Notes under the pieces: model-generated | Databases searched by the model: none | The model's input: only the letters and a program-made list of their open reading frames with translations | Told to the model about the DNA's origin: nothing | In this document: piece after piece, positions 4,921 through 25,549 of the stretch | How the letters are laid out: each line of letters opens with the position of its first letter | How positions within the stretch are numbered: the stretch's first letter is position 1 | IMG/VR virus record: IMGVR_UViG_3300045921_000484 | Location: 25,258 to 89,257 of that record | Origin: a virus | Lineage: Duplodnaviria > Heunggongvirae > Uroviricota > Caudoviricetes | Reading direction: 5' to 3' (one strand) | Length of the DNA: 64,000 nucleotides | Translations under genes and position numbers: made by a program

Positions 4921-4991
4921 AAATTTATTAAATTTTAAGATTATATATAAAAAATACATGGTCCCAACTTTAAAAAATGATATATTATATT

Positions 4992-4999
4992 TATATTTG
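4992..4999 (+). promoter_or_regulatory. Bacteroidota-type -7 promoter element TATATTTG
   Basis: Matches TAnnTTTG, about 20 nt upstream of the ATG at 5019; same octamer in intergenic positions at 12834-12841 (-), 13252-13259 (-), 51019-51026 (+), 53748-53755 (+). Confidence 0.6.
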
Positions 5000-5018
5000 T
5001 AAATTAATTTATAAATTT

Positions 5019-5603
5019 ATGATTGATAAAATAATATGCTTTGATTTTGATGGTACCCTATTTCACACATTTGATCGGTGTCAAGGTGAGAAAGTTTTTA
5101 AGGAAAAAACAGGATTGGATTGGCCGTATAATGGTTGGTGGGGTAAGCCAGAGAGTATAGATATGGATATATTTCATATTCCATTAAATGGTTGGGTGTA
5201 TCAGAGATATTTAGAGGCTGTTTCTGACCCCACAGCTCATGTTATTCTAGCAACAGGTCGTTTGGAAAAACCTATCTACATGAGGGAGAATATTGAGAGA
5301 ATTTTAGATTATCATAATCTTTCATTTGATGTTTTTGAACCTCTTAATGTTATAGAGATAGGTTCTCCCTCTAGGGTGGTTATTAGAAACGGTGTTTATC
5401 TGAATACAGGTGGAGATACATTTATGTTCAAGACTCGATTATTTGAGGATATGATGAGAAAGATGAAAGTAAATGAGTTATTGATTTATGATGATAGACA
5501 TGAACATTTGTGTAAGTTTAGTGATTGGGCTCATAAACAATCAAACTCAAAAATCACAATTTGTGATGTAGTAAATAAGAAATTTAAAACAATCGAAAAA
5601 TAA
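5019..5603 (+). CDS. HAD-superfamily phosphatase (HAD_SAK RNA-repair-like)
   Basis: CFDFDGTLF (motif I), GWWGKP, VILATGR (motif II), LIYDDR (motif IV). Confidence 0.7.
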   Translation: MIDKIICFDFDGTLFHTFDRCQGEKVFKEKTGLDWPYNGWWGKPESIDMDIFHIPLNGWVYQRYLEAVSDPTAHVILATGRLEKPIYMRENIERILDYHNLSFDVFEPLNVIEIGSPSRVVIRNGVYLNTGGDTFMFKTRLFEDMMRKMKVNELLIYDDRHEHLCKFSDWAHKQSNSKITICDVVNKKFKTIEK

Positions 5604-5647
5604 TAAATATAAATAAATATATAGTTAAAATTAAAAAAAAAACAGAT

Positions 5648-5929
5648 ATGGCTACAATTACAAAGAAGAAAACAGAATCAAAGGTTGATGAGATTCTATC
5701 TAAACCTTATCGTTTAATTCTACACAACGATGATTATAACACATTTGATTGGGTTATTACTTGTCTTATGAAGGTTTGTAATCATGAATTAGAGCAAGCA
5801 ACTCAGTGTGCACATATTGTTCATTATCGAGGTAAATGTGATATTAAGTATGGTGAATTTGAAATAATTTCAGAAATGAAAGATAAGTTGAAAAATGCTG
5901 GTCTTTCTGTCACAATAGAATCTAATTAA
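5648..5929 (+). CDS. clpS: ATP-dependent Clp protease adaptor ClpS
   Basis: YRLILHNDDYNTFDWVITCL...AHIVHYRGKC is the ClpS signature. Confidence 0.9.
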   Translation: MATITKKKTESKVDEILSKPYRLILHNDDYNTFDWVITCLMKVCNHELEQATQCAHIVHYRGKCDIKYGEFEIISEMKDKLKNAGLSVTIESN

Positions 5930-5930
5930 T

Positions 5931-5954
5931 AAACCCCTGTTGAGGGGTTTTTTT
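5931..5954. terminator. Bidirectional intrinsic terminator
   Basis: AAACCCCT-GTTG-AGGGGTTT(TTTT) between convergent clpS and terL-C. Confidence 0.8.
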
Positions 5955-8175
5955 ATTTCTTTCCAAACCAATTTACTCTACCTCCCTTATATCTATTCAT
6001 TTGTTGTCTTCTAACTTTTAGTACTTGACTATAATCAACTCCTTCTACATAGTCTATATTCCTTAGACACTCATTTACATAGTTCATGAACTCTTTATCA
6101 ACAAACTTATTAGCCCAATCTTCAACCATTTCTTTATATTCGTATTTATTGAATACTGTTGTTGAGTTTACTATTGTCATGACACAATCATCATGTCCAA
6201 CGTCTGCGGCATATTTTATATTGCCAGCTGTTGTAACATGCTTAACAAATGTCGTTATCTCTCTAATATTATCTTCATTGGTTATTAAGAATCCTTTCCT
6301 CATCATTAAATCTTGATAGTCCTTAACCATTAGGTTCTTATTGTCTCCAACTTTTAGACCAATTTTTTCTTCATTTGAGTCAGACCTGTGTTTATATCTA
6401 AAGAATACAGAGGAACCGTAGTTATTGTTGCCATCAAAAACGTGTGGCATTTCTGCTAATAGTGTATTACCATAGTTATTCAATTCCAAAACTATCTTCA
6501 CATTATCAGGATTTAAATATTCGAATACAATCATGTAAAGTAGTTCAGCTAACTGTTTTACAGATATAATGTTACTTCTGTAAATACCTATTTGCTCAAG
6601 TCTAAAGAAGTCTGATATTGACTTATAAGATGCTTTTTGAATCTCTATTAGTTCTTTAGGCTTCTGTGATATTTTAAATATGTTTATAACTGAGTAATCT
6701 TGACCCAATCCTTCTGATATATCCACCGATATTATTATCTTATAGTCTTTTCTCATTAATGGTATAAACGATTCATCATCTACCCATTTTAAGTCAGAGT
6801 AATTAAATTTAAGTTTTCTGTCAAATTCTGGAATTTGTTCAAATACATAATTCTTCTTACCCTTCAATAATTCATCTATTATACTCTCACTTAAAAGTGA
6901 TTTACTTGAGTTTATAAATCTTAAACCATACTCTTGATTAAACGCATCTTCACCTCCTATATCTTTAATAGCTTCTTCCTTCCAGGTTGTTATTTCGGAT
7001 ATTGCTCTTATTGATACTTCGTGTCCATTTTTATCTATAAAGGTCATTGATCTCACATCATCCTCTGAACAAGATTCGTTATTATAGACATATATAACAT
7101 CTTTTAATTTGTCAACAATATATTTCATCTCTACTTTGGTTACATTTCCCCAAGTATCGTTTACTAACTTGAATATATCTTCTTTTGTTACACCATATTC
7201 ATGTAGTTTATGATTATTTAATCGTATATATGTTAGGAATCGACCAGGTACCTGATACCAATAAACCCTCATAGGCTTATAGTTATTCTTTTGTGGATCA
7301 CCATCTGGTCTTTCAGCATCTGTTAATAACTTATGAAATAGATTCATGCCATTTGGTGTTGATGTTATTATAATTTTTGAGTTGTTAACGGCAGATACGG
7401 TCGGGAAGGCTGCAGTATAGTATGGTTCTATGATATTTGATGGAATGTGAGCGAATTCATCTAAGTAAAGAACGTCAATGGTAAAACCTATAGCTGGCGT
7501 CTTTGTTCTTGCGGATGTTTTAATTCTACATCCATTCTCAAAGGTTAGTGATTTTTGATTCCAAGTTTTAATACCTGGTTTTAAGAAGAATGGTAGTAGA
7601 GTATAGATTGATTTAATCTTATCTACAATTTCCACAGCAGTATCACCCTTGTTAGCTACAATCATTATATTCTTATCATTATTGAATAGAATAGTATGTA
7701 ACATGAAGATTGATGATGATATAGTATTGTGTGACAGTATACCATTTGTAAAAAATCTATGGTTTGGATGAACAACCGTTAAGTCAAACATTGATGTTTT
7801 GTGATTGTCCGAAAATATTTCTTTAATAATACTATTTCCTTTTTCAGTTTTTATTATATCACCAACTCTTAAATCTTTAGTAAATATTTCATTGAATTCA
7901 CTATCAAATAATATGTGATTATCGGCACAAGTTAGTTTAAACCCATCTTCTGTAACTATATTATAATGTTTATATGGTTGAGTTATATGTATATTTGAAA
8001 CAGGTTCATATCCGGTATCAGTTTTAACCTTTATATTCATTAAGCATATAGAATTTAATATCTTTTTACTAATATCATCTTCATCTAAAGATATATTCCT
8101 ATATTCATACTTCTCTATTAATTCAATTGTATATTTAATAGTAATTATTAAATATTTTTTAAAAAATTTAAACAT
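5953..8175 (-). CDS. terL: Terminase large subunit, C-terminal gene (split-intein C part + ATPase remainder + RNase H-like nuclease)
   Basis: After ...GILSHN|T: NIMIVANK, Walker B VLYLDEFAH, IITSTPNG, nuclease ISVDISEGLGQDYS and HDDCVM, as in T4 gp17. Confidence 0.93.
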   Translation of the reverse strand: MFKFFKKYLIITIKYTIELIEKYEYRNISLDEDDISKKILNSICLMNIKVKTDTGYEPVSNIHITQPYKHYNIVTEDGFKLTCADNHILFDSEFNEIFTKDLRVGDIIKTEKGNSIIKEIFSDNHKTSMFDLTVVHPNHRFFTNGILSHNTISSSIFMLHTILFNNDKNIMIVANKGDTAVEIVDKIKSIYTLLPFFLKPGIKTWNQKSLTFENGCRIKTSARTKTPAIGFTIDVLYLDEFAHIPSNIIEPYYTAAFPTVSAVNNSKIIITSTPNGMNLFHKLLTDAERPDGDPQKNNYKPMRVYWYQVPGRFLTYIRLNNHKLHEYGVTKEDIFKLVNDTWGNVTKVEMKYIVDKLKDVIYVYNNESCSEDDVRSMTFIDKNGHEVSIRAISEITTWKEEAIKDIGGEDAFNQEYGLRFINSSKSLLSESIIDELLKGKKNYVFEQIPEFDRKLKFNYSDLKWVDDESFIPLMRKDYKIIISVDISEGLGQDYSVINIFKISQKPKELIEIQKASYKSISDFFRLEQIGIYRSNIISVKQLAELLYMIVFEYLNPDNVKIVLELNNYGNTLLAEMPHVFDGNNNYGSSVFFRYKHRSDSNEEKIGLKVGDNKNLMVKDYQDLMMRKGFLITNEDNIREITTFVKHVTTAGNIKYAADVGHDDCVMTIVNSTTVFNKYEYKEMVEDWANKFVDKEFMNYVNECLRNIDYVEGVDYSQVLKVRRQQMNRYKGGRVNWFGKK
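7726..8175 (-). other. Split intein C-fragment (150 aa)
   Basis: Block B-like LTCADNH, block F MFDLTV, terminal His-Asn followed by +1 Thr. Confidence 0.9.
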
Positions 8176-9139
8176 TTTTTAATTGTTTTGTTTTTAATAT
8201 AAAGTTTACCATTTTTAAGACAACCAACTCCTTATTATTTCTATATTCCTTCTCACTTATATGTATTACTTTATAACCAGATTGTAATATATTTTGGTCT
8301 CTTTTTCTCTCTCTTTCTCTATTCTCTGGATTATCTCTATGATAATATGTCCCATCAAATTCTAAAATTAATTTCAAATCAGGTATAAAAAAATCAGGAA
8401 GTATATATGAATTATTTAACTTTAACCTAAACTCATAATTTCTATTTGTATCATGTATTTGGTTATTATCATCTAACCTAGCAAAATAAACTTTATTATC
8501 AAAACCTAATTTAACCAACTCATTATATATTGATATAAACATCTCTTGACTTATAACACTATAATTAACTTTTTTATAATTACTAAGCCATTTCTCTTGT
8601 CTATCTAACCATCTACTATAACCAATTTCTTTACCAAGTCTATCAATACACTTATCTAACGTAAATGTTCTTTGTCTCTCTTTCAATAGATTTTTAGATT
8701 CTTCAACTGAATATCCCTTATTGATATAATATTCCAATGTAGTAGGGTGTAATCTCTCTTTAATAGCTTCTTTAGCGAATTCACTTATATACTCTTCAAC
8801 ATTATATATATCCTTATACTTTATAAATTCTTTTGAAAATGGACTTCTTGATTTCCTCTCTAACTCAGTTGTTTTAGATTTATGATTAGGATTTTTTTCA
8901 CCCTTTACTTTCTCAGAAAACATTTTTTTATATTTTTCTTGTTTCATATGTTTTCCAGAGTTTTTAGTAGTATTTTTAATATCAGATAGAGCCATTATAG
9001 GAGCACCGGGAAATAATTTCTTATAATCCTCAGTGGTCATATTATTATGATTATATTTTAAGTGTTTACCATATATTCTCTTACATTGTTCGCCACATAT
9101 TCTACATGTAACAGTTTCTATATTATCATCTATTTTCAT
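8168..9139 (-). mobile_element. Free-standing Vsr/DUF559-like homing endonuclease gene between the two terL halves
   Basis: N-terminal CRIC...KHLKYNH Zn finger; C-terminal LPDFFIPDLKLILEFDGTYYH...ERKRD...GYKVIHISE; overlaps the terL-C start by 8 nt. Confidence 0.8.
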
Positions 9140-9173
9140 AAAAAATTAATTTTTTATTTATGTATTAAAAAAA

Positions 9174-9362
9174 TCATGGCTTCCTATCAAGTTGGTAAGC
9201 GTTTTCTAACCTATATAGATAATCATATAATTTAATCTTTAACTTTTCTAAAAAATTTAACTTTCTTTCTTTAGAAATCATTAAATAATAAAGCTTTCCA
9301 AATCTAATATCATATTTTATCCCATCTCGCTCTATTGAAATTATAGTATTAAAAGAAAAACA
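9174..9362 (-). other. Split intein N-fragment (62 aa, starts at Cys118)
   Basis: C-F-x-x-x-T-I-I...I-x-F-G-K-L-Y resembles short IntN fragments of atypically split TerL inteins. Confidence 0.85.
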
Positions 9363-9713
9363 TTTACCAACCTGCCTACTAGCCATTAGAATATTAAATC
9401 TATTATTTATGAAGTTATCTAATATCTCTTTTTGATAATCTCTTAATTTTATATTATTAATAGTCCCATCTTCTGTCTTTACTTTACAGTATTTTTCCGT
9501 GAAGTAGTGAACATCGAGAGCACATTTAATATATTCTTGTTGTTCTTCTTCTGTCATCTTAAATGACACACCAGATCTTCTTAGGCCAATTTCACTTTTC
9601 AGCCATGGATTTTGATATCTCTTTAAGACGATACCATCATTTATTTTATCTGTTGCTTCATCAACTAATCTTGTTGTGAACACCATTTGTCTCTCTTGTT
9701 GTTTAACTGACAT
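9174..9713 (-). CDS. terL: Terminase large subunit, N-terminal gene (117-aa N-extein + split-intein N part)
   Basis: IKLRDYQKE (adenine-binding motif), Walker A MASRQVGK followed directly by CFSFNTII (intein block A). Confidence 0.92.
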   Translation of the reverse strand: MSVKQQERQMVFTTRLVDEATDKINDGIVLKRYQNPWLKSEIGLRRSGVSFKMTEEEQQEYIKCALDVHYFTEKYCKVKTEDGTINNIKLRDYQKEILDNFINNRFNILMASRQVGKCFSFNTIISIERDGIKYDIRFGKLYYLMISKERKLNFLEKLKIKLYDYLYRLENAYQLDRKP

Positions 9714-9761
9714 AAAGGAAAATTATTTTTTTTAATATATATTGTAAAAAACCGCCTTTCT

Positions 9762-10394
9762 ATGTCGAAAACAGAAAATGAAAGAAATAGATTACAAGAT
9801 GAGTTTGACCAAATTCAGTCAGAAAGTGGTGAATTTGATATATCTAAACACTTAGCTAAACCAGAAGATCTACCGGATTTAGGTGAAATAAAGATATATG
9901 ACTATGACTCCGATATGACTGTTGCTAGTCAACAGTCAATGGAGGTGCTTGAATCTTTAGTTGATTTATATTTGAGTGACGTTCCTCAATTAAAGCAACA
10001 TCCATATATTAGGAATAAAATGAAGGAAGATGCTATGGTTTATGCTGAATCCATTTTTTTATCCAAAATGACTAGAAAAAATTTCTTATCGCAACTAAGA
10101 CAAATTGATAATGGAGATAATTCAGCTAGGATGCATGAAGTTGTCAATCAAACTATTGCTCAAATAAGAGAGAATGCTAAGTTTTCTTCCACACAAAGAA
10201 CAGAATTGGAAAAGTTCTATAAGAATCTAAGAAAAGATTTAGGTCTTAATGATATCGAAAGTCCTGAAGTGAGGAAGGCAACACAAGAAGCATCTTCTGA
10301 TTCACAAGAGGACGAAGGTATTGGTTCTATAATAGATAATCGTAAACTAAATGATATGATTAAAGCTGCAATGAATAAGGATAAGAAGGATTAA
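9762..10394 (+). CDS. Hypothetical helical protein, candidate terminase small subunit
   Basis: 210-aa helical ORF divergent from terL-N, sharing the palindromic AATATATATT element at 9734-9743; function inferred from position only. Confidence 0.6.
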   Translation: MSKTENERNRLQDEFDQIQSESGEFDISKHLAKPEDLPDLGEIKIYDYDSDMTVASQQSMEVLESLVDLYLSDVPQLKQHPYIRNKMKEDAMVYAESIFLSKMTRKNFLSQLRQIDNGDNSARMHEVVNQTIAQIRENAKFSSTQRTELEKFYKNLRKDLGLNDIESPEVRKATQEASSDSQEDEGIGSIIDNRKLNDMIKAAMNKDKKD

Positions 10395-24436: not shown

Positions 24437-25549
24437 ATGAGGGTATTTATAACTAGTGATTGGCATTTTGGTGTTTACCTTAATAATTTAGATAAATGGT
24501 TGGATATGATGGAAGACTATTTCTATAATTCTTTTATACCATATATAAAAGAAAATGCCAAAGAAGGTGATATAATGATACACTGTGGTGACCTTTATGA
24601 TAACAGAACATCAATCCCTATAATAGCTTCATATAAAGCTGAAAAAATACTTCTAGAGCTTTCTAAAATAATGCCGTTGCACATAATTGTTGGTAATCAC
24701 GATCTTTGGAATAAGGGAACAAATGATGTTAATTCTGTGAGATTATTCAATCATATTAGTAATATTCACGTTTACACCGAAACAACATCAATCGAAGTTA
24801 TGGGTAAGAAGTTAGTACTTATGCCTTGGGTTGAAAATAGATTAGATATGATTAAGGAAATTAAATCTAATCCAGGTGATTATTTATTTTGTCACTCTGA
24901 TTTGAATGGGTGTAGGATGCATTTAAACTCAGTTGCTCATAGAAATGCTGATAAGATTGATGTTGTGGAGTTTAGTGGATATAAGCATGTATTTTCTGGA
25001 CATATACATATACGTCAACAAAATGAGAACTTTTCTTTTGTTGGTTCTCCTTATCAAATGGATAGAAATGACATGGGTGATCAAAAGGGTATCACTATAC
25101 TTGACCTATCAACTGGTAAAATTGATTTTGAACCTAATAAATATTCACCGGTATTCAGAAAGTTTTCTATTAGAACCGAAGAAGACGTTGATAGATTAGA
25201 TGAACTAAAAGACACTAAGGATTACATAGATTTATCTATTTCGAATAATTTATTAGTTACTAATAGAAAACTTCGTAGAAAGCTAGAGGTTATGCTTGAG
25301 AAAGGTAACTTTGCTTCTGTTGAGTATATTGATGATATTGTGAGTGAAGATACAACTGAAAATAATGAGTCTATTGAAGTTAAGGAAGATGAATTAGATG
25401 TCTCTATACAATTTGAATATGAAGAGTATATTAAAGAATATATCCTTAGACAAAAGTATGATAATGATAAATTCAAGAATGGTGTTCTTACTGAATATGA
25501 TGAGATTGTTAAGATATTTAATGAGAACTATAAATCTAAGACAGACTAA
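24437..25549 (+). CDS. Recombination nuclease, T4 gp47/SbcD/Mre11-like
   Basis: SDWHFG, GDLYD, VGNHD, FSGHIH metallophosphoesterase motifs. Confidence 0.92.
   Translation: MRVFITSDWHFGVYLNNLDKWLDMMEDYFYNSFIPYIKENAKEGDIMIHCGDLYDNRTSIPIIASYKAEKILLELSKIMPLHIIVGNHDLWNKGTNDVNSVRLFNHISNIHVYTETTSIEVMGKKLVLMPWVENRLDMIKEIKSNPGDYLFCHSDLNGCRMHLNSVAHRNADKIDVVEFSGYKHVFSGHIHIRQQNENFSFVGSPYQMDRNDMGDQKGITILDLSTGKIDFEPNKYSPVFRKFSIRTEEDVDRLDELKDTKDYIDLSISNNLLVTNRKLRRKLEVMLEKGNFASVEYIDDIVSEDTTENNESIEVKEDELDVSIQFEYEEYIKEYILRQKYDNDKFKNGVLTEYDEIVKIFNENYKSKTD

Follow-up and report, generated by a model that had tools for sequence, protein, structure and literature searches.

Genes that are broken in two, each piece carrying half of an intein and with a free-standing endonuclease gene between them, were described as fractured genes by Dassa, London, Stoddard, Schueler-Furman and Pietrokovski in 2009; most were found in phages, a gp17-like terminase locus was among them, and overlapping reading frames were noted (PMC2677866). 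The same study defined the Vsr-like endonuclease family, which turned up in half the fractured-gene loci (PMC2677866). A second group of described systems comprises the inteins AceL-TerL, GOS-TerL, Cat (PDB 6dsl) and VidaL (PDB 6vgv), in which the split is atypical and leaves the N piece short and the C piece long. Here we analyze a locus related to both groups. It lies in a stretch of 64,000 nucleotides ("the window"; positions 25,258 to 89,257 of IMG/VR record IMGVR_UViG_3300045921_000484), which is a fragment of a huge uncultured phage (contig of 195 kb, CheckV completeness 34%). In this window, the gene for the large terminase subunit (TerL) is interrupted. Our reading, to which we assign a probability of about 85%, is that terL is a fractured gene: a split class 1 intein would sit in the P-loop, between Lys and Thr of the Walker A motif, the break would harbor a Vsr-like endonuclease gene, and TerL would be restored by protein trans-splicing. 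Both the arrangement and the mechanism are known, and the locus is a well-supported new example of them.

As in the fractured genes of Dassa and coworkers, the host gene is found in two pieces, each with an intein half, and a free-standing endonuclease gene is located between them. Unlike those genes, the locus belongs to a huge phage, and the break separates block A from block B of the intein, at the tip of a helical hairpin. According to the open reading frame (ORF) list, three genes on the minus strand fill positions 5953-9713 (Table 1). An initial annotation made from the sequence had described TerL as encoded by two genes about 1 kb apart, with an N-terminal intein half (IntN) of 62 amino acids at ASRQVGK/CFSFNT (the slash marks the splice junction) and a C-terminal half (IntC) of 150 amino acids ending in HN/TISS. 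Coordinates, lengths and junction residues are all correct, and 998 nt separate the TerL-N stop from the TerL-C start.

The identity of the host protein is supported on both sides of the break. Residues 43-118 of TerL-N match terminase large-subunit families (PHROG 5989, expectation value (E) 3.5e-19), and the N-extein shares 78-89% identity with the N-terminal region of TerL in relatives whose TerL is contiguous. On the other side, TerL-C matches Pfam Terminase_6N from residue 155 onwards (E 1.6e-14), and the C-extein is 78% identical to the TerL of LR756502 from query residue 151 on. The closest public genomes are those of huge uncultured phages, namely LR756502 (642 kb), LR745206 (635 kb), LR756504, LR756500 and LR756501/3 (735 kb); the nearest genome records span 462-735 kb.

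Comparison with relatives that lack the intein permits precise location of the junction. In three of these genomes TerL is a single uninterrupted frame, in which the position equivalent to N-protein residue 118 abuts that of C-protein residue 151. Relatives that lack the intein, namely LR756502, LR745206 and four IMG/VR loci, have NILMASRQVGK-TIxSS with the C-extein directly after, and the four IMG/VR loci continue as ..TISSSIFMLHTILFNNDKN.. past the join, as do the two exteins of the window; these four loci and LR745206 provide the best match to the junction residues of the window. Removal of the intein restores the uninterrupted host protein (RQVGK-TISSSIF), and the junction can be considered exact because intein-less relatives run through this sequence unbroken. 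Hence, the breakpoints lie at residues 117/118 of TerL-N and 150/151 of TerL-C (NGILSHN/TISS), between the Lys and the Thr of Walker A, and joining the exteins yields a predicted product of 117 + 590 = 707 amino acids, as initially proposed. In other terminases, the same Lys/Thr position is the "classic" P-loop intein site (PMC5050341). Among 80 related IMG/VR loci, most (63) match the N-extein and the C-extein but neither the intein nor the endonuclease; in 13, matches with IntN, the endonuclease and IntC are found as well, and in nine of these 13 a same-strand orthologue of the endonuclease, with the whole gene spanned, lies between the halves. Three further loci have both intein halves and no endonuclease match.

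Conserved residues identify the interruption, as judged from sequence, as a class 1 intein with a Hint domain, naturally split between blocks A and B. Cys1 (Cys118) is found directly after GK and is a Cys in 119 of 120 homologous N halves, among which the IntN tail is conserved and IntN spans 52-77 amino acids; invariant positions of IntN are C118, R150, L152, E156, K159, L162 and D164. In 69 IntC sequences, the invariant residues are A84, D85 and H87 in block B, D131 and H139 in block F, and S148, H149, N150 and T151 in block G and at +1. The SHN/T ending is present in all 88 homologues of 700-760 amino acids that match the junction pattern. IntN holds only block A because block B lies in the C piece, an assignment that the initial annotation had also made. 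The block B sequence is C-A-D-N-H, with an invariant His and with Ala in place of Thr; the equivalent sequence of VidaL is C-A-F-N-H. When IntC was compared with PDB by phmmer, matches were obtained with CatC (6dsl_B, E 8e-10 over IntC 42-150), VidaL (5e-7) and gp41-1 (6e-7), while a single-sequence phmmer search with IntN alone gave no meaningful PDB match. Conservation of the intein columns (0.74-0.78) comes close to that of the extein columns (0.83-0.85).

A contiguous form of the same intein exists in TerL at the same site: P0202/P0203, a protein of 909 amino acids, contains N-extein, IntN, IntC and C-extein in one frame and carries no endonuclease. A search with this contiguous intein against 1.84 billion representatives retrieved 854 matches of three kinds: contiguous forms, C halves that start around query residue 54 and have a long tail as in the window, and many C halves that start around residue 84, which are short and AceL-like. 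Among the forms checked with Pfam, all contiguous ones and three of four short-type ones directly precede position 11-12 of the Terminase_6N profile; the fourth short-type form resides in a PIF1-like helicase. Existence of contiguous forms brings up the possibility that the split is an artefact of assembly or gene calling that has cut a contiguous intein. This is barely conceivable: what separates the halves is a stop, a spacer, a gene for 323 amino acids and a new start; in two runs, Logan contigs extend over 7654-9374 and 7648-9240 with zero differences, though they probably come from the source sample and are not independent; and the nine IMG/VR contigs mentioned above have the endonuclease orthologue in the same place and on the same strand.

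The contiguous relative was also used for structure prediction. The AlphaFold2 model has a mean predicted local distance difference test score (pLDDT) of 90, and its elements follow one another as a beta-hairpin, a helix, a pair of long helices (model residues 51-65 and 69-86) and the beta-rich core. All 50 PDB matches listed by Foldseek are inteins or intein-like (BIL) domains, in agreement with a Hint fold, an assessment made on the contiguous relative rather than on the window's own halves. The best match is VidaL, with a template modelling score of 0.86 normalized to the target; the alignment has 202 columns for 145 target residues, which fits an insertion of about 55 residues. The break found in the window falls between the two long helices of the model. 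The split is thus placed by the model at the tip of a helical hairpin, which is conserved and occupies the site where AceL-TerL and Cat are split. The hairpin explains why the halves have 62 and 150 amino acids, compared with 25/104 and 30/104.

Docking of the two halves was predicted from residues 1-165 of the IntC protein and residues 104-179 of the N protein, using separate alignments. The interaction score ipSAE reached 0.84, compared with 0.01 for the best of three controls; the mark applied is reached by 58 of 80 solved complexes and by two of 110 mismatched pairs. Agreement between the docking runs is at least 76% of contacts, and the pLDDT of the partner does not fall below 76. Predicted contacts involve IntN 116-146, against core strands of IntC, and IntN 155-173, which lies antiparallel on IntC 6-24. 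Conservation at the predicted interface is somewhat above that of the rest (0.81 vs 0.71 in IntC, 0.77 vs 0.66 in IntN). As structures of split-intein complexes have been solved, the score may stem in part from resemblance to them, and it is a sign of likeness and not of binding.

Several observations weigh against our reading. Splicing itself is something that we infer from homology and from the conservation of residues, and among sequencing runs recorded as RNA none contains this stretch. In block B, this intein has Ala at a position that is Thr or Ser in most inteins. Alanine is also found in VidaL, which is a working split intein according to the literature. At +1, Thr is less nucleophilic than Cys, the residue that is tabulated at this position for AceL-TerL, GOS-TerL and Cat. 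In addition, odd C-terminal junctions are found in two distant relatives: S-S-Q/T in LR756500 (L005:5941-7827) and N-L-N/T in LR756501 (L003:4947-7214). The penultimate His has been lost in both, and Asn has been replaced by Gln in LR756500. Not every member may use the textbook route, and the chemistry may vary across the wider family. Lastly, a second TerL could be encoded elsewhere in the genome, as the contig is estimated to be only 34% complete.

The odd junctions may also be viewed as signs that the intein halves merely hold the TerL pieces together, and that the split domain serves as a dimerization module without formation of a peptide bond. The large predicted interface contributed by the tail helices is compatible with this idea, and assembly through domains derived from mobile elements has a reported precedent in the fragmented NrdA of phage Aeh1 (PMC3045599). 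In the clade of the window, however, Cys1, the block B His, the block F Asp, the terminal His-Asn and Thr+1 are invariant or nearly so, and pure docking would not need them; furthermore, the break sits inside the P-loop itself, between Lys and Thr. We thus consider docking without splicing unlikely.

Another view is that the fractured terL is inactive or in decay, and that DNA is packaged by another terminase. The contig represents around one third of the genome, and additional TerL-like paralogues do exist in LR756500 and LR756501. The paralogue of LR756500 (L005:7919-8731) lies directly downstream of the fractured TerL gene and encodes 270 amino acids, with SSRQMGIS at the Walker A position and no Pfam match; that of LR756501 is found in L009, at about 700700-701026. 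The former is an ATPase-only protein with a degenerate Walker A, which speaks against a role as substitute. No second TerL match or TerL-like paralogue was found in the 195-kb contig of the window, and neither frameshifts nor internal stops were seen in the fractured terL. Public data contain 361 separate N halves and 336 IntC-bearing proteins, and across these homologues both exteins and both intein halves are strongly conserved, a trait hard to reconcile with decay. An inactive copy is therefore very unlikely, and a functional fractured terL gene remains the preferred reading.

Likeness to AceL-TerL and GOS-TerL, proposed in the initial annotation, holds at the sequence level, with qualifications. 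The split between blocks A and B and the homology with CatC (E value given above) agree with it, and the block G sequence NGI(L/V)SH(N) is common to IntC and the atypically split group that includes Cat and VidaL. The halves are, however, much longer than in those inteins. IntN and IntC have 25 and 104 amino acids in AceL, 37 and 115 in GOS, and 30 and 104 in Cat, and the excess found in the window amounts to around 30 amino acids at the C-terminus of IntN and around 40 at the N-terminus of IntC, in the form of two conserved helices. A difference is also found at the +1 residue, which is Thr in the window and is tabulated as Cys in a review for AceL-TerL, GOS-TerL and Cat. An IntN of 25-37 amino acids is suited to peptide synthesis; that of the window has 62, and those of its relatives 52-77.

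The presence of an endonuclease gene between the halves, the remaining element of the layout initially proposed, was upheld. The 323-amino acid protein matches Pfam DUF559 with 28.9 bits (cut-off, 20.6). As a single sequence it gave no meaningful match with PDB by phmmer, and only a profile of nine orthologues reached I-Bth0305I (PDB 3r3p, E 8e-4). Invariant residues are D249, E260, G263, Y266 and H267, and the invariant His aligns with the H213A position of the 3r3p crystal construct. On the basis of these matches, the protein is a putative homing endonuclease of the Vsr-like (EDxHD) type, free-standing in a split intein. Its nuclease domain is homologous to that of I-Bth0305I, the EDxHD prototype (PMC3239194), with conservation of the acidic and His residues. 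I-Bth0305I differs in that it is located inside a group I intron in recA and contains NUMOD repeats, while the window protein starts with a Cys/His motif.

Endonucleases of the Vsr-like family are known from group I introns as well. Such introns split terL in other huge phages, the Jug huge phages (PMC12880540), and a group I intron that contains the endonuclease ORF might likewise be spliced out of the RNA here. A Rfam scan of 5500-10200 for a ribozyme core gave, however, no match to any family at E values up to 1, and the intron reading was dropped. In addition, the flanks of the endonuclease gene encode a conserved Hint-fold protein that ends exactly at the extein boundaries, and contiguous in-frame forms exist. 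We thus regard an intron as highly improbable, and retain the split intein.

Other contents were found in the gap between IntN and IntC of relatives. In L014 (6573-8297), the gap contains a different endonuclease-like gene on the opposite strand, which encodes 574 amino acids with DUF7487 repeats and a weakly Vsr-like C-terminus; a different endonuclease-like gene on the opposite strand is likewise found in L015, L022 and L023. In L017, small unrelated ORFs form an insert of 2.85 kb in the gap. The split site seems to have served repeatedly as a landing place.

Comparison of the window with IMG/VR loci L021 and L012 provided hints of mobility. DNA identity is around 60-80% through the N-extein. 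From about the Cys1 codon (9362) it climbs to 90-100% in L021, and more gradually in L012. Such identity is maintained up to the final codons of the endonuclease gene (about 8161); the next 40-nt bin has 62%, and values of 58-82% follow through IntC. Because IntN and the endonuclease are 90-100% identical while the terminases are only 59-63% (L021) or 83-89% (L012) identical to that of the window at the protein level, a cassette of about 1.2 kb made of IntN and the endonuclease gene has, from these alignments, apparently been shared recently between diverged phages. The initial annotation had proposed a possibly new orthogonal split intein; exchange of IntN between phages whose IntC has diverged argues for tolerance within the family.

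The split state is maintained in loci that have no endonuclease. DNA identity between L014 and L028 is 98-99%, and what distinguishes them is an insert of 1.77 kb with the opposite-strand endonuclease gene, yet both are split; L026, too, is split and has no endonuclease. In LR756501, a distance of 12.4 kb separates the halves, and the C half has no endonuclease next to it. A contig from run X5 matches 6869-8067 with two differences and jumps to 9202, with 174 other letters replacing 8068-9201; the replacement removes the endonuclease and both tail ends, and X5 contigs give no cover over 8239-8906. The likeness threshold at which this joint appeared was 85%, and the runs (Logan contigs) are probably the source of the window. 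The observation hints at presence and absence of the endonuclease among near-identical phages in a series of hot-spring or microbial-mat samples (runs X5 and X7; window 8067-9202).

One speculation is that, at the atypical split site, the two conserved tail helices interlock as a natural antiparallel "zipper" and define a large Cys1/Thr+1 subclass of split inteins (several hundred in public data, mostly in huge phages), whose mobile unit would be IntN plus endonuclease instead of the whole intein. We offer this idea tentatively, as one that may well turn out to be wrong. If it were true, a single IntN must serve IntC partners that are only around 60% identical to each other, and cross-reactivity would be built in, the opposite of orthogonality.

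The insertion point is shared with the TerL1-a inteins of mycobacteriophages (Kelley et al. 2016, PMC5050341), found in Walker A between the Lys, which is invariant, and the nucleophilic Thr. TerL1-a inteins are contiguous and reside in a TerL of the Terminase_1 type, while the intein of the window is split and its host is of the T4 type (Terminase_6N). What a literature search for inteins in terminases of huge phages turned up was limited to Jug phages, namely group I introns and generic counts of inteins. In some relatives (P0129, P0133, P0140-P0148, P0152, P0156, P0163, P0184 and P0217) the C half is longer, around 1060-1120 amino acids, and contains a second insert of around 320-360 amino acids at or after the position of residue 666 of the window C protein. 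Precomputed Pfam annotation of these proteins includes Intein_splicing, and Hint_2 in some. Hence, some relatives seem to have two TerL inteins, of which one is located in the C-terminal (nuclease) part; the TerL-C of the window lacks the second insert.

A model for TerL synthesis can be outlined as follows. The three genes would be expressed jointly, with the endonuclease stop overlapping the TerL-C start, and the N precursor of 179 amino acids would associate with the C precursor of 740. The beta-hairpin and helix of IntN would complete the partial Hint fold of IntC, while the amphipathic tail helices (N residues ~154-173 and C residues ~6-25) would pack antiparallel. A thioester at Cys118 would then be attacked by Thr151, Asn150 would cyclize, and an O-to-N shift would join K117 to T151. 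The outcome would be a 707-amino acid TerL with an intact P-loop (RQVGKT). The endonuclease would remain outside splicing, and would spread the cassette to alleles that lack it.

Table 1. Features of the fractured terL locus (window coordinates)
Feature	Position	Strand	Description	Basis
TerL-N gene	9174-9713	-	179 aa = 117-aa extein + 62-aa IntN	ORF list
TerL N-extein	9363-9713	-	117 aa, ends in first part of Walker A (SRQVGK)	ORF; PHROG; contiguous TerL relatives
IntN	9177-9362	-	62 aa: Cys1, block A beta-hairpin, helix alpha1, C-terminal amphipathic tail helix	
IntN tail helix	roughly 9195-9254 (N-protein residues ~154-173)	-	Amphipathic	
TerL-N stop	9174-9176	-	TGA	
Spacer, TerL-N stop to endonuclease start	9140-9173	-	34 nt, A+T-rich	
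Homing endonuclease gene (putative), free-standing	8168-9139	-	323 aa: N-terminal Cys/His motif (CxxC...H....H), middle region, C-terminal Vsr-like (EDxHD/DUF559) domain	
TerL-C gene	5953-8175	-	740 aa = 150-aa IntC + 590-aa extein	ORF list
IntC	7726-8175	-	150 aa: N-terminal tail helix, blocks B, F and G, ending S-H-N	
IntC tail helix	roughly 8101-8160 (IntC residues ~6-25)	-		
Block B	7915-7929 (IntC residues 83-87)	-	C-A-D-N-H	
Block F	in IntC		Motif SMFD..HPNHR	
TerL C-extein	5953-7725	-	590 aa + stop; first residue Thr+1 = Walker A Thr	
Hairpin	5931-5950	.	G+C-rich, with T/A runs on either side; just past the TerL-C stop and the converging ClpS-like gene	

The stop of TerL-N is TGA and that of the endonuclease gene is TAA, which overlaps the ATG of TerL-C (ATGTTTAA). 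TAG is recoded in some huge phages. An alternative code with TAG recoding was considered for this locus and dropped: the standard code fits the window, with long ORFs throughout, the relevant stops are TGA and TAA, and the C gene ends normally. The hairpin at 5931-5950 is likely a two-way terminator, although one terminator-like site in 5600-10000 compares with 0.9 in shuffled sequences, approximately the number expected by chance. No terminator-like site was found in the 34-nt spacer. A promoter scan yielded no excess (36 sites vs 32.1 in shuffled sequence) and is uninformative in such A+T-rich DNA. The hairpin is common to terL and to a gene on the plus strand that converges on its end (5648-5929), which encodes a ClpS-like adaptor of the Clp protease (Pfam ClpS, E 3e-20). 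Upstream of the latter, also on the plus strand, lies a gene for a protein of the HAD family, "Swiss Army Knife RNA repair" type (4977-5603; Pfam HAD_SAK_1, E 4e-11).

DNA packaging in this phage lineage would depend on a trans-splicing reaction that rebuilds the ATP-binding loop of the packaging motor, a clear case of an essential viral function that rests on a selfish element. The family to which the intein belongs, atypically split and with Cys1 and Thr+1, comprises natural variants by the hundreds, together with contiguous counterparts, split forms with and without an endonuclease, and halves located far apart in the genome. It thus provides good material for studies on the origin of split inteins and on the role of the extra helices.

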